Assembly: GCA_016204005.1 (NCBI GenBank)
Contig: JACQLS010000021.1
Coordinates: 1-39,910 of the forward strand
DNA length: 39,910 nt
Source of the DNA: Parcubacteria group bacterium
GTDB lineage: Bacteria > Patescibacteriota > Minisyncoccia > Phycocordibacterales > UBA2135
Direction: 5' to 3'
A program made the position numbers and the translations under genes. Under the pieces are notes generated by a model. That model did no database searches. It saw only the letters and a program-made list of their open reading frames with translations, and was not told the origin of the DNA. Shown here piece by piece: positions 22,429 to 39,665 of this stretch (positions are counted from its first letter, which is position 1; every line of letters starts with the position of its first letter).

Positions 22429-23997
22429 TTAACGTGGTCTCCCGAGTTTTTGCTTCTTTTTGTTAATGAGATCAGCATATGTGTCGTGTATCTGGCGAAG
22501 GAAGTCAGGAGCACTGCGCCCACGAACAGAAACGGACAGCTCTGGATCAAACGAACGCGCTTGCTCCCCTTGTATGTCATCCGTGACATATACTGAATCC
22601 GAATTACGAAAGATCCAGCGATAAATCGGGAGATACTTCTTTGTCCGCGTATTCCCCTCTCCAAGCTCTGCTGGATCAAGGGTTACGAGAAAAGAGAGAT
22701 CGCGCGTGATGAACTTCAGAAAGAGCGCGGAGAGCCCGCCGTAGCTTGCCATAATGGACCAGGCAAAGTGGTACTTGTGCCGTCGGTGGAGTTGATAGGC
22801 TTTGATGACCCCGAGAAATGGCAAAAGATACTTATCCAAGGTGGAACCAAAACCGATACGATAAATGTGGTCTGTCTTGTGACGTTCGTATGCCGGGAGA
22901 CCGCTCCTAAACCGGGATGTAACGATGTGAAATTCTGTGCGAGGCAACATTTCCGAAAGTTCATACAGCGCCCTCTCTGCAGGACCGAGGTCAGGATAGT
23001 AGGTTGTCGCAAAAACCAAGATCTTCCGATCCGGACGTTCTAGTGTTTTGAAAAATTGAATAGTTTTGGTAAGGCCGTCTTCAAAACCGACCTTGGGTAC
23101 CCAGCCAAGTTTTTCCTTCGCGAGAGAAATGTCGGGACGCCTTTCTCTTGGATCGTCTGTTGCTTGTTTCTCAAAAACAATCTTGGAGGCTGACCCAGTC
23201 GCCCGTATAATTCTTTCCGCAAGCTCTTTCATGTTCATCTCCGCTTCATCGTTTCCGATATTGACTGGTCCGACGAATTCCTCTGAAGAGGACATCATGC
23301 GATCAATCCCCTCCACGAGATCGTCAATATACTGGAAGCTCCTACTGGAAGACCCGTCGCCATAGATCACGAGGTCTTTGCCGTCCAGAGCATTCCCGAC
23401 AAAATTTGCTATCGCCCTGCCATCGTGGAGATCCATACGCGGGCCGTATGTATTAAAAATGCGGATAATCTTCACCTTAACTCCGTATTGCCGGTGGAAG
23501 TCCATGCAAAGTGTCTCCGCGGCACGCTTTCCTTCATCGTAACAAGCGCGCGGGCCTGTGGGGCTGACGTTCCCGCGGTAACCTTCTTTTTGCGGATTCT
23601 CGAGTGGATCGCCGTATACCTCTGAAGTGGATGCTTGGAGTATCACCGCTCCATCGCGGTATGCGAGTGTAAGCATGTTACGCATTCCATCGACATTTGT
23701 GCGTAGCGTGTGCACGGGGTCATATTGATAAATAGCAGGAGCTCCCGAACAACCAAAGTTCAAAATCCAGTCAACATGCTCTTTTGGGAAAAAGGGCTTA
23801 ATGATGTCGTGCTGCACAAAACGGAACTGCGGGTTTGAGAGCAAGTGGTCGATGTTTTTGGTTGTCTTCGTGGTCCGCAGGTTATCAACGCAAATAACCC
23901 GGTGTCCAAGACCGAGGTACTTTTCACAGAGGTGCGAACCGATAAATCCCGCCCCTCCCGTTATAAGAATGGTTTTTTTGTTGTTATTTAGCCTCAT
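22429..23997 (-). CDS. UDP-glucuronate decarboxylase-like SDR fused to an isolated GT4 N-terminal (acceptor-side) half-domain
   Basis: N-terminal ~315 aa has ILITGGAGFIGSHLCEKYL and CYDEGKRAAETLC. The C-terminal ~205 aa (KILVFATTYYPDLGPAERALYELSEML...) aligns by eye with the N-terminal half of the GT4 at 9905..11116 (LLIFSLTYYPRFVGGAEVAVKEITDRL...). It lacks the E-x7-E half. Confidence 0.7.
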   Translation of the reverse strand: MRLNNNKKTILITGGAGFIGSHLCEKYLGLGHRVICVDNLRTTKTTKNIDHLLSNPQFRFVQHDIIKPFFPKEHVDWILNFGCSGAPAIYQYDPVHTLRTNVDGMRNMLTLAYRDGAVILQASTSEVYGDPLENPQKEGYRGNVSPTGPRACYDEGKRAAETLCMDFHRQYGVKVKIIRIFNTYGPRMDLHDGRAIANFVGNALDGKDLVIYGDGSSSRSFQYIDDLVEGIDRMMSSSEEFVGPVNIGNDEAEMNMKELAERIIRATGSASKIVFEKQATDDPRERRPDISLAKEKLGWVPKVGFEDGLTKTIQFFKTLERPDRKILVFATTYYPDLGPAERALYELSEMLPRTEFHIVTSRFRSGLPAYERHKTDHIYRIGFGSTLDKYLLPFLGVIKAYQLHRRHKYHFAWSIMASYGGLSALFLKFITRDLSFLVTLDPAELGEGNTRTKKYLPIYRWIFRNSDSVYVTDDIQGEQARSFDPELSVSVRGRSAPDFLRQIHDTYADLINKKKQKLGRPR

Positions 23998-24161
23998 TAT
24001 CTCCTTCTGCCTTCTCTCCTATATAAAGGGTATTAAACCCTATATTACGACTTCGCTCGGAGAAAATGAGAGCAAGCTCTTATTTCCCCTCCTCGCTCGT
24101 CGTAATAAGCACTTCGTCTTGTATAAACTCCTTGGCTCGGAAATGAGAAAGCCTTGCTTTC

Positions 24162-25607
24162 TCATTTCTCTCGCTCTACATCGTTTATAATGGAAAATTC
24201 ATCTGCGAGGTTTCCCTTCCGTCTCATTACTAAGAATCCTATACTACTGCCGCCAACAAGCAAAAGGAGGAAGAAAATCGCTAAGGGCCCGCTCCCTACG
24301 CCGGGAGCGCTACCAACTCTGGCGAGCGCCTGGTGTTTTTCGACCACCCTTTCGGCTTCTTCTTTGGGAGCTGGCGATAGCTTTTTCTCTGCAACGGAAG
24401 GTCGAGGAGGAACGACTTTCATGGGTAAGACCTTCGGCACTTCGGCTATCTGTGTTGTTGGTGGCTGTACTTGCAACACTGCAGTCTTGCCATTTGGATA
24501 GAGGAGTTCTGTATGTGTATCGTTTAAAAAACCTGTCACGGAACCGGGGAAAATTATTTCTTTTTTAGACAGAAGGAAGGAGTGCTCTGGAATGCGGAAA
24601 TAGAGACCGCCGTGTTTTAGGAGCCAACCCGACAGGTCAAGCTCGTGACTTGAATTGTTTTTTATCTTTACAAAAAGCTCTCCGCTTTCTTCTGTCTGTG
24701 TAATAGAGAGAGCGATACTCTCCGCTTCAACCACCAGACGATCCCCGGCACTATATTCCCCCGAAGCGGCATCGAGCACTACTACGTATGTCCCGGGGTA
24801 ACGGAAAATGTGAGAGACATGCTTCCCCTCTTTTGTTGTCCCGTCTCCAAAATTCCACATATACCGAGCGTTGGCGATAGCCTCCCCCTCGAAACCATAT
24901 GCTTCTCCAAGAAATGATGCTCCCGCTCCGACTATCACTGTTTTTGTTTCCTTCTTTATCTTTACTGTTATCGTTTTTATTGGTGGAACCGCTGAAAAAG
25001 TAGCAGGTTGGCCGACCGTGGCACCCGTTTCCGTGCCCACCTCTTCTTCCGGTGGGGAGATCTCTTCTTCATTCTCACCCCCGCCACCTGTTACTCCCTG
25101 GTTTTGGGCTCGCGGTGAAGGCGTCCCAGTCATCCAGGAAACGCCATTCCATTGCATTGTCTCTTTCGTCGTATTATTACCCCCACTCCAACCGCTCGTC
25201 TGGTCAAGCTCGTCTATAATTGCTCCGCTCTGGTCTTTTAGGGCCAGATGCTCCCCGCTATTCCCCAAGGCTCCAGTGTACAGCAAATCAGCGACAATGC
25301 CTGGCACAGAGTCATCGTCGGGGCGCTCGAGGAGGAAAAACCCACCCGCCGCAATTGTCCCACCCAAAAGAATATTTGGCGAACCGTCAGCCGCAACGAG
25401 TTGCCACCCATCAAGGATAATGGCTTCACTGCCATCATTGTAGAGCTCAATCCACTCGTCGTTGTAAGAAGTGACTGTGCCCATCCAAGCAATCTCATTA
25501 ATGCGTACGGTTGCCCCAACACTAAGCGGGAGTAAAAAGAATATGAAGAGTAATGCGCGAAACATTATCTTCCATTGTAAGCGCGTTGCGGACACGTGCA
25601 ATTGCAT
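24162..25607 (-). CDS. Secreted/anchored surface protein: lamin-tail domain (LTD) + PKD domain + second LTD-like region + C-terminal TM anchor
   Basis: Signal-like MFRALLFIFFLLPLSVGA (ATG 25565 is an alternative start). LTD RINEIAWMG...DEWIELYN. PKD WNFGDGTTKEGKHVSHIFRYPGTYVVVL. C-terminal GPLAIFFLLLLVGGSSIGFLVMRRK. Confidence 0.7.
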   Translation of the reverse strand: MQLHVSATRLQWKIMFRALLFIFFLLPLSVGATVRINEIAWMGTVTSYNDEWIELYNDGSEAIILDGWQLVAADGSPNILLGGTIAAGGFFLLERPDDDSVPGIVADLLYTGALGNSGEHLALKDQSGAIIDELDQTSGWSGGNNTTKETMQWNGVSWMTGTPSPRAQNQGVTGGGGENEEEISPPEEEVGTETGATVGQPATFSAVPPIKTITVKIKKETKTVIVGAGASFLGEAYGFEGEAIANARYMWNFGDGTTKEGKHVSHIFRYPGTYVVVLDAASGEYSAGDRLVVEAESIALSITQTEESGELFVKIKNNSSHELDLSGWLLKHGGLYFRIPEHSFLLSKKEIIFPGSVTGFLNDTHTELLYPNGKTAVLQVQPPTTQIAEVPKVLPMKVVPPRPSVAEKKLSPAPKEEAERVVEKHQALARVGSAPGVGSGPLAIFFLLLLVGGSSIGFLVMRRKGNLADEFSIINDVEREK

Positions 25608-25673: not shown

Positions 25674-27749
25674 CTATTTTGTTTCGATGCGTAGTATTTC
25701 ACGCAGCTCATTCTCTGGAATTTCTGGAATCGGTTCAGCCCCGCTTGCCACTTTGGGAACTTGCTCTTCTCTTTTAACTTCTTCCCTCTTAACTTGCGGC
25801 GGCGGAGTACTTGGTGGCGGAGACGGCGGAACGCTCGAAGGGGATGCTGGTGGAGGCGTGCTCGCTATGGTTACCTCTGTGGGCGCTCCCTCTCCTGTAC
25901 GCGGGACATTTGGAATCCCCGCCTCTACCCTGCTAGGCGCCACTACCACTCCAGCATTTTTACCGGGTGTTTTTTCTTCCATTGCCGCATCAAGCGCGCG
26001 CTTAAGTTGAGAGAGGTTCTCCTTCAGCTTTCCCGTATTGTCTGTGCTGTTTTTTCGTAACACATTCAACGAAACCGGTTCAATCTTCTGGGCTTCCGAA
26101 GTAGAGGGATTAGCGTTTCTTGGAGGAGTCGCGGGCGAAGGAGGATTCTGTCTTACCGCCGCAAGCGCATCTTTGAATGAACTGTGACCAATGGGTGGCG
26201 CTGGCGGAATTGGCGGCGTGGACGGAACGCTCGGAACTGGTGGAATTGGCGCCGCAACTCTTTGTTCGGGGATCTTTCCCTCGACTTTGCTCGGGACAGG
26301 TCGCTCTCCCACCCTCTCTCTTGGGCGCTCATCCTTCCTCCACTCTTTCCTCTCTCCGCTACTCTGAGGAGTAATCGGGCGAACATCTTTCCGCTCTACT
26401 ACTCCAACCTTCGGCATTATTGCAGACTTTTCTCCAATGGGTTTCGGAGGCGGAGGAACGGGCTCCAAACTTTTCCGGATTGCCTCCTCTACCTCGGAGC
26501 GTGGTTTTGCGTATGCCCTGCGCGAATGGCGAAGCACCTCAGGAACAAATGATCGTTTCGGCTTTTCAATCGGCGGAAGCGTCAAGGCGGAAAAGGGGCG
26601 GGATGCGAGACCATCAATCATGAGTTTCAGATAAATATTGTAGGCCCCTGTGCCCACGATATCTTCCGCGGTAAACGTCGGTGAGAACTCCTTCTCGAGC
26701 ATCTCGGCGTCTTCTGCTCCGATGCGGAACGTAATAAGAGTACCTACGTTTCCGAAAATAGCATCCCTCACCTCGTCCTCCATCTGCCCCACATATTGGT
26801 GCGCAATGGTAAGTGATAGTTTGTATTTTCGTGCTTCTGAAAGAATGTCCGCAAATGTTTCGTTCGCGAAAGATTGAAACTCGTCTACGAAAAGAAAGAA
26901 TGGCGGGAGCTTGGCAAGCTCGCTTGCTGTACAGTCTGCGCGGCTCATTGCTCCAAGGTAAAGTTTAATGATGAGCATGCTCCCCAAGAGACGCGCGTTC
27001 GTTTCTCCCATTCTCCCCTTGGAAAGGTTTAGGATAAGGATTTTACGCTTGTCCATCATCTCTCGAATATCGAAGGATGACTTTGGTTGTCCGATAATAT
27101 TGCGAATGACAGGATTGGACACGAATTGCCCTACTTTGTTTTGGATTGCCGGTGTCGCTTCACGCGTGTATGTGTCGGTGTATTTTGCAAATTCATCAAC
27201 CCAAAAGGATTTCACGATCGGGTCTGTTACATGCGAGACGACGTCTTTCCTGAAGTCTTTGTCGATGAGCATTCGGTTGACCGAGAGAAGCGTTGAGCCG
27301 GGATACTCGAGGAGTGCCAGAAGCGCATTTTGTAGAATGTACTCCATACGCGCGCTCCAAGCATCCACCCATATTTTCTTGAATGCGCTCATCAGGTTTG
27401 AGACGACGAGGTGGCGTTTGTCATACCCGACATCTTCCATGACGTTAAACGAAACTGGGTATTCCAGGTCAAAAGGAGCAATATAGAGCACATCATGAAT
27501 GCGCTCTTCTGGAACATGTTCCAGAAGTTTTTCGGCCGATGAACCGTGGGGGTCGAGAAAGGCTAAGCCGTTTCCGTTCTGTATGTCCTGAATCGCCATG
27601 TTCTCGAGCGTAACCGACTTACCCATACCGGTTTTCCCAATCACATAGACGTGCTTCAAACGATCCAGAGCCTTAATGCCAAAAATCTTCTCCTTCCCTC
27701 GGTAGTTGGTCTTTGCAAAATATGTTTTTCTTTCTTCCCAGCGTTCCAT
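25674..27749 (-). CDS. VirD4/TraG/TraD-like (type IV coupling protein-like) P-loop ATPase, soluble, with ~240-aa proline-rich C-terminal tail
   Basis: Walker A VIGKTGMGKS and Walker B FFLFVDEFQSF, plus LTIAHQYVGQ. No N-terminal TM helices. Start moved from TTG 27761 to ATG 27749 (MERWEE). The tail is rich in PPxP and KREEV repeats. Confidence 0.7.
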   Translation of the reverse strand: MERWEERKTYFAKTNYRGKEKIFGIKALDRLKHVYVIGKTGMGKSVTLENMAIQDIQNGNGLAFLDPHGSSAEKLLEHVPEERIHDVLYIAPFDLEYPVSFNVMEDVGYDKRHLVVSNLMSAFKKIWVDAWSARMEYILQNALLALLEYPGSTLLSVNRMLIDKDFRKDVVSHVTDPIVKSFWVDEFAKYTDTYTREATPAIQNKVGQFVSNPVIRNIIGQPKSSFDIREMMDKRKILILNLSKGRMGETNARLLGSMLIIKLYLGAMSRADCTASELAKLPPFFLFVDEFQSFANETFADILSEARKYKLSLTIAHQYVGQMEDEVRDAIFGNVGTLITFRIGAEDAEMLEKEFSPTFTAEDIVGTGAYNIYLKLMIDGLASRPFSALTLPPIEKPKRSFVPEVLRHSRRAYAKPRSEVEEAIRKSLEPVPPPPKPIGEKSAIMPKVGVVERKDVRPITPQSSGERKEWRKDERPRERVGERPVPSKVEGKIPEQRVAAPIPPVPSVPSTPPIPPAPPIGHSSFKDALAAVRQNPPSPATPPRNANPSTSEAQKIEPVSLNVLRKNSTDNTGKLKENLSQLKRALDAAMEEKTPGKNAGVVVAPSRVEAGIPNVPRTGEGAPTEVTIASTPPPASPSSVPPSPPPSTPPPQVKREEVKREEQVPKVASGAEPIPEIPENELREILRIETK

Positions 27750-27800
27750 AAGGAAAAACAAGCTCTATACTCTATATTATGTAACTAGTTCACGACTTGG

Positions 27801-34218: not shown

Positions 34219-34269
34219 AATAAAGGTACCAACGCTCCCTTATGCGGGGAGCCCTTCGGAGGAACGCAC

Positions 34270-35052
34270 ATGAACATGTTGATGAAGCAGCTGATGGTTC
34301 AGTGGTTCGCGTACCGCCTCGCTTGCGGCCCAAACTGCGAGTGCGCCGCGGAAACCTTGCGGCACCTCGAACTGCTCGCACGGCTTGAGCAGGTCAAGCG
34401 TCGAGCCCAGGAACAGCAGCGCCGCAACCAGATGGTCGCAGTCGCCGGACGCTTGAGCCCCGCGATGGCGTTCATTGTCGAGAGCACCTTGGCACAGGCA
34501 TCGATCGACAGCGAGGTCGCCGAGGTCACGTTCAAGGCCACGTCGATCAGCTCGACCGGCATCTCGATGGCGACGGTTACGATCGACCCCGACGGCTACT
34601 CGGCGGAGTCGGTCTCGCTCGAGGTCAGCGTCGACCACGAAGATGTGGTCCACGGCGACGGCTTCACCATGCACCCCGTGGACGACTGGCACATCCCGGG
34701 CGGACACCTTGACGATGGGATCTCCACCGAAGCGGCGATGCGCGAAGCTCTGGCGGAGGCCAACTTGGCAATCGTCGGCGGCGGATCGCTTCGTGACGTG
34801 GGTGACCAGTGGGAACGGAGAATGGCAGACCTTCAAGCGAATCTGCCCTTCGCCGACTTCGGGACTCGTCGCAGTTCGAGTTGGGCCCACAGCCACCTCA
34901 CCGAACGGGTCGCCGCCATGAGAAGTCGGAATGGACGGCAGCGTATGCCGCTCAATATCATGGCACTCGAGCCCTCGGTTGAGTCGCGGCGGCCTCCGCA
35001 GCGTTTGCTGGCTTCGCCGCCGGCGACGCTGAGGCTGACATACCAGCCGTAA
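34270..35052 (+). CDS. Hypothetical acidic protein encoded by a high-GC cassette
   Basis: 260-aa ORF. GGAGGAA at 34258-34264 lies 5 nt before the ATG. Very GC-rich third positions (GTC GCC GAG GTC ACG TTC AAG GCC...). A sampled line is 65% GC. The opposite-strand and other-frame ORFs are Arg-rich shadows. Confidence 0.6.
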   Translation: MNMLMKQLMVQWFAYRLACGPNCECAAETLRHLELLARLEQVKRRAQEQQRRNQMVAVAGRLSPAMAFIVESTLAQASIDSEVAEVTFKATSISSTGISMATVTIDPDGYSAESVSLEVSVDHEDVVHGDGFTMHPVDDWHIPGGHLDDGISTEAAMREALAEANLAIVGGGSLRDVGDQWERRMADLQANLPFADFGTRRSSSWAHSHLTERVAAMRSRNGRQRMPLNIMALEPSVESRRPPQRLLASPPATLRLTYQP

Positions 35053-35069
35053 CGGACTGAAGAAAAAAT

Positions 35070-35097
35070 GGCGGGAGCGCATGAGCGCGCTCCCGCC
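35070..35097 (+). terminator. GC-rich 11-bp hairpin after the high-GC ORF (no clear U-tract)
   Basis: GGCGGGAGCGC-N6-GCGCTCCCGCC, then ATTACTATTTT. Confidence 0.5.
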
Positions 35098-37240: not shown

Positions 37241-37945
37241 ATGTCTCTCGTCTGCCATGAATGCGGCAATGACATACAGCCAAGCGATACCCTCCCCGCG
37301 CGCGAAGGTGGGATAATTCATCCTAATGTGATTTCACTTGCCTGGTTCCCTGACGGAAAGACATGGACGCGTGTGTTCGTGGAAGCGCCTCAAGGGATAG
37401 CGTGCTGCCTCGAATGCGTCGGGCGAAGTGTCCCTGGATACGATTTTGAACGCCTGACAAAGCTCACTCATGTTTGCGATGCTTACAACGCCGAAGTGAC
37501 GCTTAGGCGGCACGAGCAGAGCATGGAGGGTAAATGGATAGATATGGGAGGAAGGGAATTCAAGCGAAAACTCAAACTCGAAACTGCTTGGGAAGAAAAG
37601 TTGAAATTGGTCCCGACTGACGTCTGCCTCCTATGCAATGCAGACGTGTCGACAAATACAAAACCTTTTTTCACTTTCAAGGTGATGGACCGAGCTCATG
37701 GAGAAAAGCGACGTTCAGGCTTCGGTTCTTACCAATGGTCCCATATCAAGACGGGTGCAACTCATTTCTCTATCTGTTTTGCCTGTTGTCACACCCACCT
37801 ACCTCGCATATTCGAACAGATAAGCAACGAGCTCCGACAGACAGGGCAGTCAAACTTAGGTGAAGTTTGCAAGTCAGAACTGGTCATATCACCCGAGGTG
37901 ATTGATGAACTCCTTAAGGAGTCTGGCAACAAGTTTGTCCAGTAA
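37241..37945 (+). CDS. Cys-rich hypothetical protein with two zinc-ribbon-like modules
   Basis: CHEC...CCLEC in the N-terminal half and CLLC...CFACC in the C-terminal half. GGAG lies 7 nt before the ATG. Promoter TTGAAA-17-TATTCT and terminator 37953-37978. Confidence 0.55.
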   Translation: MSLVCHECGNDIQPSDTLPAREGGIIHPNVISLAWFPDGKTWTRVFVEAPQGIACCLECVGRSVPGYDFERLTKLTHVCDAYNAEVTLRRHEQSMEGKWIDMGGREFKRKLKLETAWEEKLKLVPTDVCLLCNADVSTNTKPFFTFKVMDRAHGEKRRSGFGSYQWSHIKTGATHFSICFACCHTHLPRIFEQISNELRQTGQSNLGEVCKSELVISPEVIDELLKESGNKFVQ

Positions 37946-37952
37946 TCACAGC

Positions 37953-37978
37953 AAACCCACGACATGTCGTGGGTTTTT
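37953..37978. terminator. Bidirectional terminator after the Cys-rich ORF and after the tRNA 3'-half element
   Basis: AAACCCACGA-CATG-TCGTGGGTTTTT. Confidence 0.7.
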
Positions 37979-37991
37979 AAAAGTCAGATGT

Positions 37992-38077
37992 TGGTGGGCG
38001 TGGAAGGAATCCTTCGACTTCGCTCAGGACAAGTCGAACCGGAGTTTATCCGCCTCTGGCGGAACCTCTGTCTTATA
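37992..38077 (-). other. tRNA 3'-half-like element with encoded CCA (aberrant T arm, 45-nt insertion)
   Basis: Minus strand TATAA-GACAG-AGGT-[TCCGCCAGAGGCGGA TAAACTCCGG TTCGACTTGTCCTGAGCGAAGTCGAA]-GG-ATT-CCTTC-CACGCCC-A-CCA. GACAG and CACGCCC are complementary to CTGTC and GGGCGTG of the 5' fragment at 38335-38371. Confidence 0.55.
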
Positions 38078-38317
38078 ATTGCAAACGAGGAAGAAAATGA
38101 AAATGCTATTTTCATTTTCTCCGAGCGCCGCAATTATATCTTGTGCATATAAACACAAACGAGGGAGAAAATGAGAGGGCGTACTTCTCTGTGTGCGGGC
38201 GGAAAGAATCGAACTTTCGACCTCTGTCTTATCAGGACAGCGTTCTACCACTGAACTACGCCCGCACACAAAAAACTAAAAGAGCTCTCTCACTTTTCCC
38301 GAGTGCCGTGTTTATAT
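38074..38317. repeat. Duplicated promoter/leader modules flanking tRNA-Ile
   Basis: 38074-38100 versus 38148-38174 are 23/27 identical. 38113-38139 versus 38291-38317 are 20/27 identical. An AT-rich 11-bp hairpin GAAAATGAAAA-N5-TTTTCATTTTC lies at 38093-38119. Confidence 0.65.
38194..38265 (-). tRNA. tRNA-Ile (anticodon GAU), CCA not encoded
   Basis: GCGGGCG-TA-GTTC-AGTGGTA-GAAC-G-CTGTC-CTGATAA-GACAG-AGGTC-GAAAG-TTCGATT-CTTTC-CGCCCGC-A. All four stems are Watson-Crick. Confidence 0.9.
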
Positions 38318-38337
38318 CATGATATACATCATGATAT
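38313..38337. repeat. Two copies of the palindrome ATCATGAT (as the 10-nt direct repeat ATCATGATAT, 12-bp phasing) in the spacer of the putative tRNA-Ile promoter
   Basis: Cores at 38316-38323 and 38328-38335. The first is embedded in the 14-bp palindrome TATATCATGATATA. Confidence 0.7.
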
Positions 38338-38371
38338 CAAGGACAGCGTTCTACCACTGAACTACACGCCC
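38335..38371 (-). other. tRNA 5'-half-like element (acceptor strand, D arm, 5' anticodon-stem strand), truncated in the anticodon loop
   Basis: GGGCGTG-TAGTTCAGTGGTAGAACG-CTGTC-CTTGATA. 26 consecutive nt (GTAGTTCAGTGGTAGAACGCTGTCCT) are identical to the intact tRNA-Ile, but the acceptor strand differs. It has its own TTGCGA-17-TACTAT promoter. Confidence 0.6.
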
Positions 38372-38385
38372 TCAGCAATGGCGTC

Positions 38386-38414
38386 ATAGTACCAAAAAAC
38401 CTCTATCCTCGCAA
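38386..38414 (-). promoter_or_regulatory. Promoter TTGCGA-17-(TGg)TACTAT upstream of the tRNA 5'-half element
   Basis: Hexamers at 38409-38414 and 38386-38391 (minus strand). The fragment starts 14 nt downstream of the -10. Confidence 0.55.
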
Positions 38415-38419
38415 CGGAT

Positions 38420-38447
38420 TTGCATAAAAAAAGACTTGTGGTATGCT
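38420..38447 (+). promoter_or_regulatory. Promoter TTGCAT-16-(TGg)TATGCT of the orphan GC-rich unit
   Basis: Hexamers at 38420-38425 and 38442-38447. A similar TGGTATGCT element occurs at 11971-11979 upstream of the asnB-like gene. Confidence 0.45.
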
Positions 38448-38453
38448 TTTCAA

Positions 38454-38750
38454 CTGGGAGCAAAACCAGGAGGTTGAGTGGTAATGAGGGACACGCATGC
38501 GGTTTAAGAGCGGTGAAAATGGTACACCGATTCGGGCAGATGAGGGAAGAAGTCGTGAACCGGGAGACAAGCCGGCCACATCCGCACCAAAGAACCCACG
38601 CACACAGGTGCGCCGACACCAACGTGCACGAGCACGAGTACGCGTCAAATCTCCGGACGACCCGCGCCGTCTCCCTTCTCAACTACAATTGGCGGAATCT
38701 ACCGCGCGATAAAAGCACCGTATCCCGCAGCGTTACAGACGCTGCTTTTT
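38454..38750 (+). ncRNA. Candidate orphan transcription unit: structured GC-rich ncRNA of unknown class, or a 71-aa Arg-rich small protein (38497..38712)
   Basis: TTGCAT-16-TGgTATGCT promoter (38420-38447), about 295 nt at roughly 58% GC, ending in GCAGCG-N7-CGCTGC-TTTTT (38727-38750). An internal ORF has GAGGGA 5 nt before ATG 38497. All ORFs here are low-complexity. Confidence 0.35.
38727..38750 (+). terminator. Intrinsic terminator of the orphan GC-rich unit
   Basis: GCAGCG-TTACAGA-CGCTGC-TTTTT. Confidence 0.6.
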
Positions 38751-38780
38751 AATGCTTGCATCTATGTTACAATACCCCTC

Positions 38781-39665
38781 ATGAGCGGAGACATATCTCA
38801 AAAAATTGTTGGTATCTACCACAAGAACTGCTTGGACGGCACAACTGCCGCCGCAGTGCTTCTCAAGCGATTCCCCAACGTACAGCTCTACTCCCTTGTG
38901 CGCTGGTATACCCCAGAGGACTTTGACCGTATACTCCATGATGTCGATGATACGACTATTGTCTACATTGTTGACTTCGGCTTAAACGAAGCAGAAGCTG
39001 TAAAACTTGCGGACAAGGCAAAAGAGGTAATCAACATTGACCACCACATCGGAACGAAAGAGGAAATCGAGAGCTTTGCAAAAAATCGCAGCAACTTCAC
39101 CTTCATCTTCGACAACGACCACGCAGGCGGCTCGCTTTCATGGATACACTTCTACGGCGAAGAGGGCATGCCAAAGTTTGTTCGCCTTGCCGAGCAAATT
39201 GATCTCTTCAAATTCACTCCGGACAATGAAGCCCACTCTCTTGCGGCAAATGCCACCTTTCTTATGAACAAACCCGAGGTGGTAAAAGAATACCTAGATG
39301 GAGACATAACTCCCCTCCTCCAAAAAGGAGCGGCGATACAAGAATTCCAAAATGCACTCGTCGAAGAATTCATGATAGGTGCCGAGCCGACTATGCTTAA
39401 GATCGGTGAGAAGCTTGTGCGCGCATATAATGCACCCGTCTTTCTCCGCTCAGAAATCGGCCACCGTCTCTCGACACAGTTTAATGAAGCGGTTGTCATT
39501 TTTCGCTTTATGGGAGAAGGCGTCCGATTGAGTTTTCGAGGAAACGACACCGACAACCCTTCCGCCATGGAGCTTGCAGAAGCGCTTGGGGGCACAGGTC
39601 ATCGGAATGCCGCAGGAGCCTTCGCGACTACCGAACAATTCATGAACATGATCGTCCACAAATAA
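38781..39665 (+). CDS. DHH/DHHA1-family phosphoesterase (NrnA-like)
   Basis: CLDGTTAAAVL, INIDHHIG (DHH motif) and GGTGHRNAAGAF (DHHA1 GGGH motif). The ATG lies 7 nt after TGtTACAAT. Confidence 0.8.
   Translation: MSGDISQKIVGIYHKNCLDGTTAAAVLLKRFPNVQLYSLVRWYTPEDFDRILHDVDDTTIVYIVDFGLNEAEAVKLADKAKEVINIDHHIGTKEEIESFAKNRSNFTFIFDNDHAGGSLSWIHFYGEEGMPKFVRLAEQIDLFKFTPDNEAHSLAANATFLMNKPEVVKEYLDGDITPLLQKGAAIQEFQNALVEEFMIGAEPTMLKIGEKLVRAYNAPVFLRSEIGHRLSTQFNEAVVIFRFMGEGVRLSFRGNDTDNPSAMELAEALGGTGHRNAAGAFATTEQFMNMIVHK

Follow-up and report, generated by a model that had tools for sequence, protein, structure and literature searches.

The window analysed here is a 39,910-nt stretch of contig JACQLS010000021.1 of a Parcubacteria group bacterium, in which an intact tRNA-Ile(GAU) gene lies on the minus strand between the two halves of another tRNA-Ile gene. 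The features of this nested unit, and of two related hairpins elsewhere in the window, are as follows.

38386..38394, minus strand: extended -10-like element TGGTACTAT, with a T run before it (direct reading)
38335..38371, minus strand: 5' exon of the outer tRNA-Ile(GAU) (direct reading; nhmmer E 8.8e-12)
38311..38338, minus strand: left-junction mini-hairpin GATATCATGAT-GTAT-ATCATGATATA (inverted repeat)
38266..38317, minus strand: left arm of hairpin U1, consisting of P1, J1, P2 and the P3 leader (inverted repeats, alignments, nhmmer)
38194..38265, minus strand: inner, intact tRNA-Ile(GAU) with no encoded CCA (ARAGORN; Rfam RF00005)
38147..38193, minus strand: right arm of U1, consisting of the P3 trailer, P2, J1 and P1 (inverted repeats, alignments)
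38073..38139, minus strand: U2, a cargo-less copy of the hairpin family (inverted repeat, fold, nhmmer, CM)
37992..38074, minus strand: degenerate 3' exon of the outer tRNA-Ile (direct reading, ARAGORN)
38017..38063, minus strand: 47-nt two-hairpin insertion in the variable region (direct reading)
38003..38015, minus strand: T-arm remnant GAAGG-ATT-CCTTC with TTCG deleted (GAAGG-TTCGATT-CCTTC in relative L010)
37953..37976, minus strand: intrinsic-terminator-like hairpin AAACCCACGACA/TGTCGTGGGTTT, 3' of the encoded CCA
24042..24108, plus strand: H1, a dispersed cargo-less hairpin (nhmmer, fold, CM R1)
24121..24190, plus strand: H2, a second, tandem cargo-less hairpin (fold, CM)

Read on the minus strand (38371->38335), the outer 5' exon is GGGCGTG-TA-GTTC-AGTGGTA-GAAC-G-CTGTC-CTTGATA, that is, the acceptor strand GGGCGTG, a D arm and the anticodon stem strand CTGTC, followed by CT-T-GATA with one extra T. 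The outer 3' exon (38074->37992) reads AAGACAG-AGGT-[47 nt, 38063->38017]-C-GAAGG-ATT-CCTTC-CACGCCC-A-CCA. The acceptor strands GGGCGTG and CACGCCC are exact complements, and 260 nt containing the intact gene separate the two halves (38371-38335 and 38074-37992). This layout, an intact tRNA-Ile(GAU) (38265->38194) between halves with complementary acceptor strands, had been reported in a preliminary description of the locus and was confirmed by minus-strand reading, ARAGORN and Rfam, with the inner tRNA matching RF00005 over its full length (1-71) at 75.9 bits. A repeat comparison within the window also bore out the reported run of 26 nt shared by the outer 5' half and the inner tRNA, and both the encoded CCA of the outer 3' half and the loss of TTCG from its T arm could be read directly. 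The 27-nt outer 3' end occurs once in the window and gave 0 matches in 100 shuffles, and the whole 383-nt nested unit has a fold z of -10.2. Judged from its sequence, the inner tRNA-Ile(GAU) is the working gene.

Three lesions were found in the outer gene: the extra T, which gives an 8-nt anticodon loop, the 47-nt hairpin insertion in the variable region, and the loss of TTCG, which leaves a 3-nt T loop. Idealised joins of the outer exons were all rejected by ARAGORN until the three lesions were repaired; the repaired gene equals the tRNA-Ile of locus L105 within the tRNA proper, as far as the discriminator. The first hairpin of the 47-nt insertion is TCCGCCAGAGGCGGA-TAAACTCCG, and its hairpin motif, CCGCCAGAGGCGGATAAAnTCCG, was also found in a D-loop remnant in L068 and in intergenic positions in L021, L045 and L046. 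The closest relative is represented by two contigs, L014, whose DHH protein is 84% identical, and L010, with a hypothetical protein at 60% identity. In L010 the 3' half is canonical (AGGTC-GAAGG-TTCGATT-CCTTC-...ACCA), with TTCGATT kept and the 47-nt insertion missing, and the lesions seen in the window are therefore derived. The preliminary description had looked to relatives for the state of this site, and this was answered in part: the canonical 3' half was seen in the closest relative, and the interruption was not readable where the contigs of L014 and L010 break inside the tRNA. Their 30-nt break points were considered as a sign of a repeat in the relative and dismissed, as the core is common to many co-occurring CPR species.

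The interruption of the outer tRNA-Ile(GAU) lies in its anticodon loop, between T36 and A37. The preliminary description had joined the halves to give the anticodon UAU, taking the TATAA before GACAG as loop sequence; these are in fact the last letters of a hairpin arm, GCAATTATA. At about 20 homologous loci the 5' exon extends to CCTGA(TA) and the 3' exon begins with (TA)AGACAG, which makes the outer gene a GAU tRNA; the same junctions as in the window recur at 10 loci or more, and the window differs by just one extra T (CCT-T-GATA).

Separate promoters for each of the three tRNA pieces had also been suggested, a claim that did not hold up. A sigma-70 scan of 37700-38800 returned no promoter-like site, TGGTACTAT likewise being uncalled, and by eye TGGTACTAT, upstream of the outer 5' half, was the only convincing extended -10. 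It has a counterpart, TGGTACCAT, in relative L014, and resembles the T-run and TGnTAnnnT elements upstream of tRNA-Ile at other CPR loci; it probably drives the whole nested unit. An internal promoter in the left arm was rejected, since an extended -10 is present there in the window and L090 and is not conserved; if such a promoter were in use, P1 would be unable to form in the RNA. Beyond the outer CCA, the terminator-like hairpin (37976->37953) has perfect 12+12 pairing and a T run, and L010 has a terminator hairpin at the matching position after its tRNA.

The inner tRNA is carried at the tip of U1, a long hairpin whose left arm consists of P1 (ATATAAACAC), J1 (GGCACTCG), P2 (GGAAAAGTGAGAG) and the P3 leader (TTTTTTGTGT), and whose right arm consists of the P3 trailer (CACAGAGAAG), P2 (CTCTCATTTTCTC), J1 (CCTCGTTT) and P1 (GTGTTTATAT). 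P3 is a helix that prolongs the acceptor stem of the inner tRNA, and J1 is a small, pyrimidine-rich internal loop with pyrimidine mismatches around a 2-bp GC step, a form that differs from the 3-4-3 motif of archaeal splice junctions. The J1 variant of the window, CACTCGG/CCTCGTTTG, departs from the consensus TTCGCTCG/CTCRCTG and was found again in a hairpin of L113. U1 aligns with its pairs kept in both of the alignments described below (A1 and A2), and gave an E of 0.18 against a left-arm nhmmer profile built without the window. In the mini-hairpin at the left junction, the anticodon nucleotides are base-paired to the first part of the insert, and counterpart mini-hairpins were found at the left junction of other cassettes. 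Inspection and folding gave a three-way junction in which the anticodon stem meets the mini-hairpin and P1, and the spacer on its 3' side is 1 nt long.

U2, which directly adjoins the outer 3' exon, has the same parts without a tRNA: P1 is TAATTGC/GCAATTA, J1 is GGCGCTCG/CTCGTTT, and P2 is closed by a 3-nt loop. It has a fold z of -5.5, was detected at E 2.3e-4 by a profile built without the window, and scored 74 bits in sense against 15 bits in antisense with CM R1, of whose training set it is a member. A U2-type cargo-less hairpin is also present in L151, which has the same layout as the window. Elsewhere in the window, H1 has the layout ATTACGAC-TTCGCTCG-P2-CTCGCTC-GTCGTAAT (nhmmer E 2.2e-4 with a profile built without the window; fold z of -6.1; 62.5 bits with CM R1 as a training-set member), and H2, which overlaps the stop codon of ORF 24162-25607(-), has a fold z of -5.8 and a CM score of 40 bits, again as a training-set member. 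An imperfect palindrome is thus present in several copies in the window (U1, U2, H1 and H2), and CM R1 found cargo-less copies outside its training set in L086, L113 and L116. These results show that the hairpin family is dispersed beyond tRNA-Ile loci.

When the CPR tRNA-Ile core was used as a search pattern, 119 loci were recovered; the anticodon was GAU in every one of them, and most carried the label of a Patescibacteria lineage. A 41-nt core of these genes is identical in more than 100 species. Orphan 5' and 3' halves around an intact gene were found in L023, L031, L044, L062, L131 and others, and the J1 motifs were confined to nested loci (9/120). A junction scan gave 21 CPR loci, 16 of them new, and 15 non-CPR matches, a number close to the approximately 17 chance matches estimated beforehand; the two of these 15 that were inspected (L138 and L146) had no tRNA context. 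A scan keyed on P3 and J2 rather than on the cargo found five CPR loci, with tRNA-Ile(GAU) as cargo in all five, and every other cassette examined also carried tRNA-Ile(GAU). Together these scans show the cassette of tRNA-Ile(GAU) inside tRNA-Ile(GAU) in about 28 other CPR species genomes. Many of the cassette loci come from short-read MAGs, in which repeated tRNA halves are open to mis-joining, and L103 resembles such a collapse; L154 is OY970216.1, a record labelled as an 805-kb chromosome, and other cassette contigs are several hundred kb long.

The stems of the scaffold covary. In alignment A1, 93.5% of cells were paired, with two-sided changes in 12 of 14 pairs, and in alignment A2 (35 pairs) 88% were paired, with two-sided changes in 26 pairs; neither result was equalled in any of 500 shuffles, and slid controls were 35-51% paired. 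U.G pairs are kept at the P1/J1 boundary and within P3, and this, together with the 74 versus 15 bits of the CM, points to the tRNA-sense strand. Covarying stems combined with conserved internal loops point to a folded single strand rather than to protein-bound inverted repeats. The scaffold thus appears to be under selection.

The junctions have the form CCTGA-TA-[insert]-TA-AGACAG, in the window CCT-T-GATA | ... | TATA-AGACAG. TA flanks occur on both sides at 10 junctions or more; a TA target duplication would produce this pattern, so would insertion 3' of (G/T)ATA, and element termini in TATA would look alike. A second, GC-rich flank family (L055, L132) breaks exactly at A35/U36 without duplication. 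The sequence and gene found downstream of the outer 3' half in L090 and L044 are the same as those beyond the uninterrupted tRNA in L098, L018 and L076, and on this comparison of empty and filled sites the outer gene is shown to be the ancestral, resident one. L086 and L154 contain near-identical cassettes, and their resident genes differ at 4 of 7 acceptor-stem pairs, all compensated, and in the T stems as well. Because near-identical cassettes occupy different resident genes, horizontal spread is indicated. At eight loci, the window among them, the outer and inner acceptor stems are fully paired yet different, and in L137 the cargo tRNA-Ile has a body unlike that of its outer gene. At about half of the loci the two acceptor stems do not differ, a state that agrees with intragenomic duplication or gene conversion no less than with transfer. 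The outer acceptor strands are 7/7 complementary at most loci (the window and at least 14 others), and this could reflect a structural role for the halves rather than pure relics.

Further searches addressed the origin of the insert. Rfam was run at the gathering threshold on the whole window and at E<=10 on 37850-38500, and was also applied to seven related loci and to 23980-24220; it gave tRNAs only, so that a group I intron (RF00028), a ribozyme or another known RNA family was rejected. No transposase (IS630 and Y1/RAYT types included), integrase or homing endonuclease was found in the 40-kb window. The 234-aa neighbour (37241-37945) was considered as a mobility protein and rejected, as it has no Pfam family and the contigs that carry its homologues elsewhere (L011, L012, L013) have no tRNA. 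A phage origin was likewise rejected, distant blastn against phage genomes having found generic tRNA similarity only; viral contigs contained neither the cassette junction nor the CPR tRNA-Ile core. An integron attC-like P1 (RYYYAAC/GTTRRRY) was dismissed because the AAC/GTT triplets vary across cassettes. The exact outer 3'-half pattern had no match in genome contigs, a synteny search with the DHH neighbour in GTDB genomes gave only relatives of approximately 45% identity, labelled Aquificales, and a metagenome scan for a conserved upstream block gave two unrelated AT-rich contigs.

The explanation that we consider likely on the whole is that a resident tRNA-Ile(GAU) was interrupted by a hairpin cassette carrying its replacement, and that the outer gene is now a relic. 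This was among the readings offered in the preliminary description, and the comparative data support it. A resident tRNA-Ile(GAU) of a Patescibacteria (CPR) chromosome would have been broken at T36/A37 by a 260-nt palindromic insert, made up of the scaffold P1, J1, P2 and P3 with a complete tRNA-Ile(GAU) at its tip and a cargo-less hairpin copy next to it, and the outer relic would later have gained the extra T, the 47-nt hairpin insertion and the TTCG deletion. The unit may be transcribed from the outer promoter to the terminator beyond the outer CCA, and in the sense-strand RNA the scaffold may serve as a stem for processing or insulation, the inner tRNA being freed from it. We infer from the sequences that the unit is transcribed as one RNA, that it is processed at the scaffold and that the outer halves are non-functional. 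The cassette may have spread horizontally as a self-complementing insertion; a tRNA-Ile gene assumed to be single-copy and essential would be interruptible only because the cassette brings a replacement.

The other explanation with most to recommend it, though an unlikely one, is an old, host-adapted transcription unit of the Paceibacteria in place of a mobile element, inherited vertically after one ancient accident, with gene conversion between the outer and inner copies, a scaffold kept solely for processing of the essential inner tRNA, and patchiness caused by repeated loss through recombination at the direct repeats. Compensatory P1 changes between L090 and L044, probably orthologous cassettes, point to function in situ, one-sided deletion derivatives exist (L143, L144, L162 and L165; L152 versus L162), no mobility enzyme was found in the 40-kb window, and inner and outer acceptor stems are identical at about half of the loci. 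It does not account well for the near-identical cassettes of L086 and L154 in resident genes with multiple compensated stem differences, for the different tRNA body of the L137 cargo, or for cargo-less hairpins at unrelated sites, and a decaying outer pseudogene should not outlast deep divergence in genomes of approximately 1 Mb. tRNA genes are classical sites of integration, crossover taking place in the anticodon loop or the T loop, and the locus could in principle be a recombination scar made without a dedicated cassette, by an integrase moving larger elements in and out or by local duplication with deletions, the hairpins being incidental. Displaced 3' ends lie approximately 150 nt downstream of intact tRNAs in L036, L066, L028 and L126, one insert of this type encodes a GIY-YIG nuclease, and L083 has a pseudo-tRNA and an intact tRNA in tandem. 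However, integrase scars duplicate the tRNA 3' segment alone, whereas here both the 5' and 3' halves are displaced around a complete gene, the conserved covarying flanks recur in about 28 genomes at nested loci only, and the window is without integrase or element remnants; the finding of the P1-J1-P2-P3 scaffold around tRNA-Ile in many genomes went against a scar, which we regard as improbable.

There is still less to be said for the outer halves being a functional split or intron-containing tRNA (Ile-UAU or Ile-GAU), with the insert cut out and the exons ligated or base-paired in the archaeal style, a reading that had been offered earlier and that now seems very improbable. The break falls within the anticodon loop and adjoins position 37/38, where introns canonically lie, a long helix is stacked on the anticodon stem, the acceptor strands are 7/7 complementary in the window and at least 14 other loci, and in L031, L142 and L151 the outer exons are identical or nearly so to the inner tRNA. 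Against this, ARAGORN needs the 3-nt T loop, the 47-nt insertion and the 8-nt anticodon loop all repaired, and outer copies elsewhere decay differently and without compensation, through D-arm deletions (L090, L166), anticodon-stem mismatches (L113, L154) and truncations (L156, L167). The junctions have no visible 3-4-3 bulge-helix-bulge motif, and the UAU anticodon stems from taking hairpin arm GCAATTATA as loop. Least probable of all, to the point of being negligible, is a chimeric metagenome join of near-identical tRNA-Ile genes. The 41-nt core identical in more than 100 CPR species would favour such joins, the short-read contigs of L010 and L014 break in the tRNA, and L103 resembles a collapsed repeat, but in the window the repeats are just 26 and 13 nt long and the flanks are unique, the same ordered layout recurs in about 28 independent assemblies including the 805-kb L154 record, and mis-assembly is unable to yield covariation of the scaffold.

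The replacement-carrying cassette shares features with several known systems. Integrative elements (phages, genomic islands) enter tRNA genes at the anticodon loop or T loop and make the gene whole again with their own copy of the segment that they displace. With these it has in common the tRNA target, a crossover in the anticodon loop, tRNA sequence supplied by the incoming DNA, which keeps the function, and a displaced fragment left behind. It differs in carrying a complete nested tRNA with leader and trailer, in displacing both halves, and in being approximately 170-260 nt long, with no integrase and with one long covarying hairpin; an att scar would consist of a 3' repeat only, with a tyrosine or serine recombinase, whereas both halves are displaced around the 260-nt insert and the window encodes no recombinase. 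Intron-containing, multi-intron, split and permuted tRNA genes of archaea are associated with bulge-helix-bulge motifs, the EndA splicing endonuclease and the RtcB ligase. They share with the CPR loci a break near 37/38, extra insertions in the D, variable and T-loop regions, a helix on the anticodon stem and intervening sequences that are apparently mobile between genes. In contrast, the CPR cassette has a bacterial host, no 3-4-3 motif and a functional tRNA inside the intervening sequence; as the outer exons decay, they are probably not spliced into a needed tRNA, and no EndA-type endonuclease or ligase was found among the proteins of the 40-kb window. Bacterial group I introns occupy anticodon loops in, for example, tRNA-Leu(UAA) of cyanobacteria and tRNA-Ile(CAU) of Azoarcus. 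The position in a bacterial tRNA gene is the same, but Rfam at E<=10 detected no group I core in the cassette, and its 188 nt of non-tRNA insert form a simple hairpin. CPR RNA genes are described as rich in introns in a passage of PMC10714607 that cites Tsurumaki et al. 2022. The hairpins resemble MITE, REP and ERIC sequences in being imperfect palindromes of approximately 65-70 nt with TA-rich termini, in dispersed and tandem intergenic copies, and differ from them in that one lineage bears a whole tRNA at its tip and occurs nowhere but within the gene for that tRNA. Dada DNA transposons of eukaryotes target tRNA and snRNA genes, encode a DDE transposase and produce 6-7 bp duplications, and their insertions are tolerated since the targets are multicopy (PMC3706591). 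Sequence-specific insertion in small-RNA genes is common to both; the target of the cassette is presumably single-copy, and its insertion would be tolerated through the substitute that it carries.

Full-text literature searches gave no account, for CPR, of a tRNA nested in another tRNA or of this family of hairpins, and the nested cassette is apparently undescribed as an RNA-gene cassette. A broader proposal, which we put forward tentatively and hold to be somewhat short of an even chance, is that Patescibacteria harbour an undescribed class of tiny protein-less hairpin elements, one lineage of which carries a complete tRNA-Ile(GAU), homes into the anticodon loop of the host tRNA-Ile(GAU) gene and takes over its function while that gene decays, and that the scaffold is a new RNA or ssDNA motif for a processing or mobilising enzyme. 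If this homing reading is true, the cassette would amount to a gene-replacement element that is self-complementing, its target being an essential RNA gene. Nested loci of this kind break short-read assemblies, and their orphan tRNA halves are missed or miscalled by annotation pipelines.

If the replacement-carrying cassette is the right reading, a presumably single-copy, essential tRNA gene can be invaded without death of the host, as the invader carries a working copy of its target. Bacteria would then join the organisms with multiply interrupted tRNA genes, which to our knowledge have so far been mainly archaeal and algal. The P1-J1-P2-P3 scaffold would have to be read by some enzyme, either a tRNA-releasing RNase or a mobilising activity, and would offer a definite starting point for work on RNA processing and on non-autonomous mobile DNA in the CPR, most of which is uncultured.

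The minus strand bears out the preliminary description of two tRNA halves placed around an intact tRNA-Ile(GAU). Below, U1 is the hairpin scaffold that carries the inner tRNA (the cargo), and U2 is a cargo-less hairpin of the same family.

Features of the interrupted tRNA-Ile locus (window, minus strand)
38394->38386: extended -10 TGGTACTAT, with a T run before it, upstream of the outer 5' half (by eye)
38371->38335: outer tRNA 5' half, GGGCGTG-TA-GTTC-AGTGGTA-GAAC-G-CTGTC-CTTGATA (direct reading)
38265->38194: intact tRNA-Ile(GAU) (ARAGORN; Rfam tRNA 75.9 bits, full length)
38139->38073: U2, same design as U1, tip of only 3 nt, abutting the 3' exon
38074->37992: outer tRNA 3' half, AAGACAG-AGGT-(47 nt)-C-GAAGG-ATT-CCTTC-CACGCCC-A-CCA (direct reading)
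37976->37953: perfect terminator-like hairpin, 3' of the outer CCA (inverted-repeat match)
U1, helix P1: ATATAAACAC/GTGTTTATAT
U1, small internal loop J1: GGCACTCG/CCTCGTTT
U1, helix P2: GGAAAAGTGAGAG/CTCTCATTTTC
U1, helix P3: GTGT/ACAC and beyond, extending the acceptor stem of the inner tRNA

The two outer acceptor strands form an exactly complementary pair, which neither of them forms with a strand of the inner tRNA, and a repeat search recovered the 26-nt stretch identical in the outer 5' half and the inner tRNA; both features are real, as first described. The outer 3' end occurs once in the window, with no matches in 100 shuffles, and folding of the 383-nt unit against shuffles gave z = -10.2. 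CCA is encoded by the resident (outer) gene of the window and by its relative, and not by the inner tRNA. A promoter-like element had been proposed for each of the three pieces, but a sigma-70 scan of the locus found no promoter-like site; inspection by eye picked out a single good extended -10, which sequence comparison showed to be kept in the window's nearest relative. About 330 nt of non-coding DNA (38400-38760, minus strand) separate the DHH gene from the tRNA promoter and are conserved relative to positions 60-400 of L014, a locus from another genome, most strongly in the blocks CGACTTCT.CCCTCATCTGCCC, CCTTAAACCGCATGC and TTGCTCCCAGT.G.AAAGCATACCACAAGTCTTTTT. No convincing ORF or Rfam match was found in this region, which may be an unannotated small RNA or regulatory region.

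The window is an unremarkable piece of a Patescibacteria/CPR chromosome. Its genes specify Mur ligases, many glycosyltransferases, sugar-nucleotide enzymes, a peroxiredoxin, a DHH phosphoesterase and a VirD4/TraG-like protein, and none of them specifies a transposase, integrase or homing endonuclease. The VirD4/TraG-like coupling protein adjoins a lamin-tail and PKD surface protein (25674-27761 and 24162-25607, both minus strand), and the rest of the chromosome around it holds mostly cell-envelope sugar genes. The most GC-rich part of the window, 34240-35082, has long overlapping ORFs on both strands (280 aa minus, 260 aa plus), neither with a Pfam match.

The 260 nt between the halves are non-random. 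The flanks of the inner tRNA pair into one long hairpin, U1. In an alignment of 10 scaffolds (A1), 93.5% of cells were paired, compared with 35-51% in slid controls, and two-sided changes occurred in 12 of 14 pairs, matched by 0 of 500 shuffles. The scaffold also covaries in a 12-scaffold alignment (A2) of 35 pairs from P1, P2, a short P2b helix and P3 (88% paired; two-sided changes in 26 pairs; 0/500 shuffles). Judged from sequence, it is under selection. Conserved U.G pairs occur where P1 meets J1 and within P3, and the covariance model scored U2, itself in the training set, at 74 bits on the tRNA-sense strand versus 15 bits on the opposite strand, so it is the sense strand that folds, in the form of RNA or possibly single-stranded DNA. 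J1 is a pseudo-symmetric 2-bp GC step between pyrimidine mismatches, and we infer that it is the kind of site a dimeric nuclease would read.

The tRNA-Ile core GGTAGAACGCTGTCCTnnnAAGACAGAGGTC was found in at least 119 species-representative genomes, mostly labelled Patescibacteria and the remainder unclassified bacterial MAGs, with anticodon GAU in all. Among these 119 CPR loci, orphan halves surround an intact gene in L023, L031, L044, L062, L131 and others, the 5' orphan 60-110 nt upstream and the 3' orphan 90-110 nt downstream of it; numerous variants are one-sided or carry more interruptions. The J1 motifs (left TTCGCTCG, right CTCRCTGCC) were present in 9 of 120 loci, all nested. Scanning with the right junction CTCNCTGCCnnnnnnAAGACAGAGG gave 21 CPR loci, 16 of them new, and 15 non-CPR matches against about 17 expected by chance, as estimated beforehand; the two of these 15 that were inspected (L138, L146) had no tRNA context. 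P3/J2 sequences alone, around the cargo, found 5 CPR loci. In all cases (about 28 genomes and the window) both cargo and interrupted gene are tRNA-Ile(GAU), and L151 has exactly the window's layout of a cargo hairpin followed by a cargo-less one. The same nesting is seen in a second, GC-rich flank family (CCTGA, then CCCGCCAGCCG...CGGCTCTGGCGGGCAGG, then TAAGACAG; L055, L132), to which L066 and L057 probably also belong. At L103 (171-300, plus strand) a 5' half beginning GCGTCTG sits 17 nt upstream of a tRNA whose own acceptor strands mismatch (GCGAGCG versus CAGACGC), CAGACGC pairing perfectly with the upstream half. The likeliest cause is that the assembler collapsed a nested locus; a genuine arrangement of this kind would mean a tRNA in need of splicing.

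L090 and L044 share with L098, L018 and L076 the sequence aaggcttttatgcc... and the gene downstream: in the first two these come after the outer 3' half, in the other three after the uninterrupted tRNA. The promoters are homologous too. Because these flanks are common to interrupted and uninterrupted loci, the outer gene is the resident and the cassette the insertion. The 5' exon of homologous loci extends as far as CCTGA(TA), and (TA)AGACAG opens the 3' exon, so that the outer gene is a tRNA of anticodon GAU, interrupted at T36/A37. The window differs by one extra T. The anticodon UAU suggested earlier is not supported: the TATAA taken to follow CT forms the terminus of the U2 arm, GCAATTATA.

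The outer gene could alternatively be a functional split tRNA, and in most loci its acceptor strands are indeed still paired at 7 of 7 positions, a caveat to any reading as a relic. However, ARAGORN found no tRNA from the window's outer exons, whether joined as first proposed or by homology, and called tRNA-Ile(GAU) only with the extra T and the 47-nt insertion removed and TTCG restored; thus repaired, the gene equals the L105 tRNA-Ile throughout the tRNA proper, as far as the discriminator. The window's closest relatives are L014, whose DHH protein is 84% identical, and L010, where a neighbouring hypothetical protein is 60% identical. At the two corresponding flanks they have a 5' half beginning GCGGGTG and a canonical 3' half, GACAG-AGGTC-GAAGG-TTCGATT-CCTTC-CACCCGC-ACCA, with terminator, both contigs stopping within the tRNA. 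This canonical half shows the 47-nt insertion and TTCG loss to be derived in the window. Elsewhere, outer copies carry uncompensated D-arm deletions (L090, L166) or anticodon-stem mismatches (L113, L154), are shortened (L156, L163, L167) or beyond recognition (L174), or are invaded in D, variable or T loops by further small hairpins; those of L031 and L142 are intact and identical to their own inner tRNA. With the ARAGORN rejection, these lesions mark the outer genes as relics and argue against a functional split tRNA. The first hairpin of the 47-nt insertion, CCGCCAGAGGCGGATAAAnTCCG, shares its motif with the L068 D-loop remnant and intergenic L021, L045 and L046. A GC-rich mini-hairpin, CCGCCAGAGGCGGA (window 38049-38062, minus strand), recurs in several CPR genomes, both in remnants of dead tRNAs (the window's variable region, the D loop of L068) and between genes (L021, L045, L046), and similar CCCGCC.../CCCCGAC... 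hairpins fill D and T loops of other outer relics.

Outward appearance recalls archaeal multi-intron or split tRNA genes, but the cassette lacks their bulge-helix-bulge motif and functional exons. A group I intron was ruled out, there being no group I match in Rfam at the locus. Like integrative elements, the cassette repairs the tRNA gene where it lands; unlike them, it is protein-less and hairpin-shaped and brings a whole gene. Its cargo-less relatives behave as MITE/REP-type palindromes. Dada transposons also target tRNA genes and depend on multicopy targets (PMC3706591), and insertions and introns are already known in CPR rRNA genes (PMC10714607); no description of a nested tRNA-in-tRNA arrangement was found in the literature. 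The interrupted and uninterrupted loci and the recurrent nesting support the early suggestion of a cassette with a replacement tRNA, and we consider a disrupted resident gene with such a cassette probable.

Whether the cassette is truly mobile we put at slightly under an even chance. Several observations point to spread between lineages. The L086 and L154 cassettes are near-identical (left arms about 90% identical, cargo tRNAs differing at 3 positions), and their resident genes differ in the T stem and in 4 of 7 acceptor pairs, each change there being compensated. In 8 loci, including the window, the outer stem is unlike the inner acceptor stem and both are fully paired, and the cargo tRNA-Ile body of L137 (TAGCTCAGGTGGTTAGAGCG...) is unlike its CPR-type outer gene. 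The CCA that the window's inner tRNA lacks and its resident gene encodes points the same way. On the 3' side, homologous recombination through the conserved exons looks an unlikely means of transfer, with only about 12 nt universally conserved there. At least 10 loci have the junctions CCTGA-TA-(insert)-TA-AGACAG, which would fit TA duplication (IS630/mariner-type MITEs) or insertion 3' of (G/T)ATA (IS200/IS605-type); the GC-rich flank family has no duplication at its junctions. Deletion derivatives with only the right arm and 3' orphan (L143, L144, L162, L165; compare L152 with L162) illustrate the decay of the arrangement through recombination between the direct repeats.

The hairpins are also dispersed. 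A left-arm profile built with the window left out matched U2 (E 2.3e-4), U1 (E 0.18) and an unrelated intergenic window site, 24047-24083 (E 2.2e-4), where two tandem hairpins lie between ORFs 22429-23997(-) and 24162-25607(-).

Cargo-less hairpins with the full P1-J1-P2 design (window, plus strand)
24042-24108: H1, in tandem with H2
24121-24190: H2, overlapping the stop codon of ORF 24162-25607(-)

The scaffold covariance model (R1) found cargo-less copies outside its training set in L086 (50 bits), L113 (49.5 bits; with the window's J1 variant) and L116 (32 bits), and H1 and the L086 copy share the left flank GGTATTAAAC(C/T)CT. Cassette and hairpin sequences (window locus, related loci, H1/H2 region) matched no Rfam family besides tRNA.

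Other oddities were seen in CPR tRNA genes. In a second insertion class, without an Rfam match, a partly conserved body of about 150 nt (motif ...GCTYGGCTCRCGTTYGGAATYGGA...) comes after an intact tRNA, and beyond it the 3' part of that tRNA, starting at the T loop, is repeated: L036 (tRNA-Ile, tRNA-Leu-GAG), L066 (Ile, Leu-UAA), L046 (Val-UAC), L028, L114, L126, L132 and L040, the last with an 80-aa GIY-YIG nuclease ORF (Pfam 5.9e-16). Many CPR tRNA-Ile(GAU) genes (L018-L136) have the T loop TCCGATT, with C at position 55, a near-universal U elsewhere; pseudouridine-55 would therefore be precluded. In L015 (3169-3864, minus strand) the coding region of a 231-aa protein with an N-terminal HTH domain and a LAGLIDADG-like stretch, VAGLMLYLGEGSK, runs at its end into the start of a tRNA-Ile(GAU) gene; the protein is a possible free-standing homing endonuclease adjoining the same target gene.

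The unit that holds the replacement cassette would be transcribed as a whole, starting at the promoter before the outer 5' half and stopping at the terminator that follows the outer CCA. The scaffold would pair leader with trailer, keeping the inner tRNA apart from the look-alike outer halves, and would direct endonucleolytic release ahead of RNase P and 3' maturation. If the resident gene is single-copy and essential, as we assume, occupying it would be possible only through the substitute that the cassette carries. An element for which we found no published description recurs in CPR genomes, and the window holds a decayed example of it.
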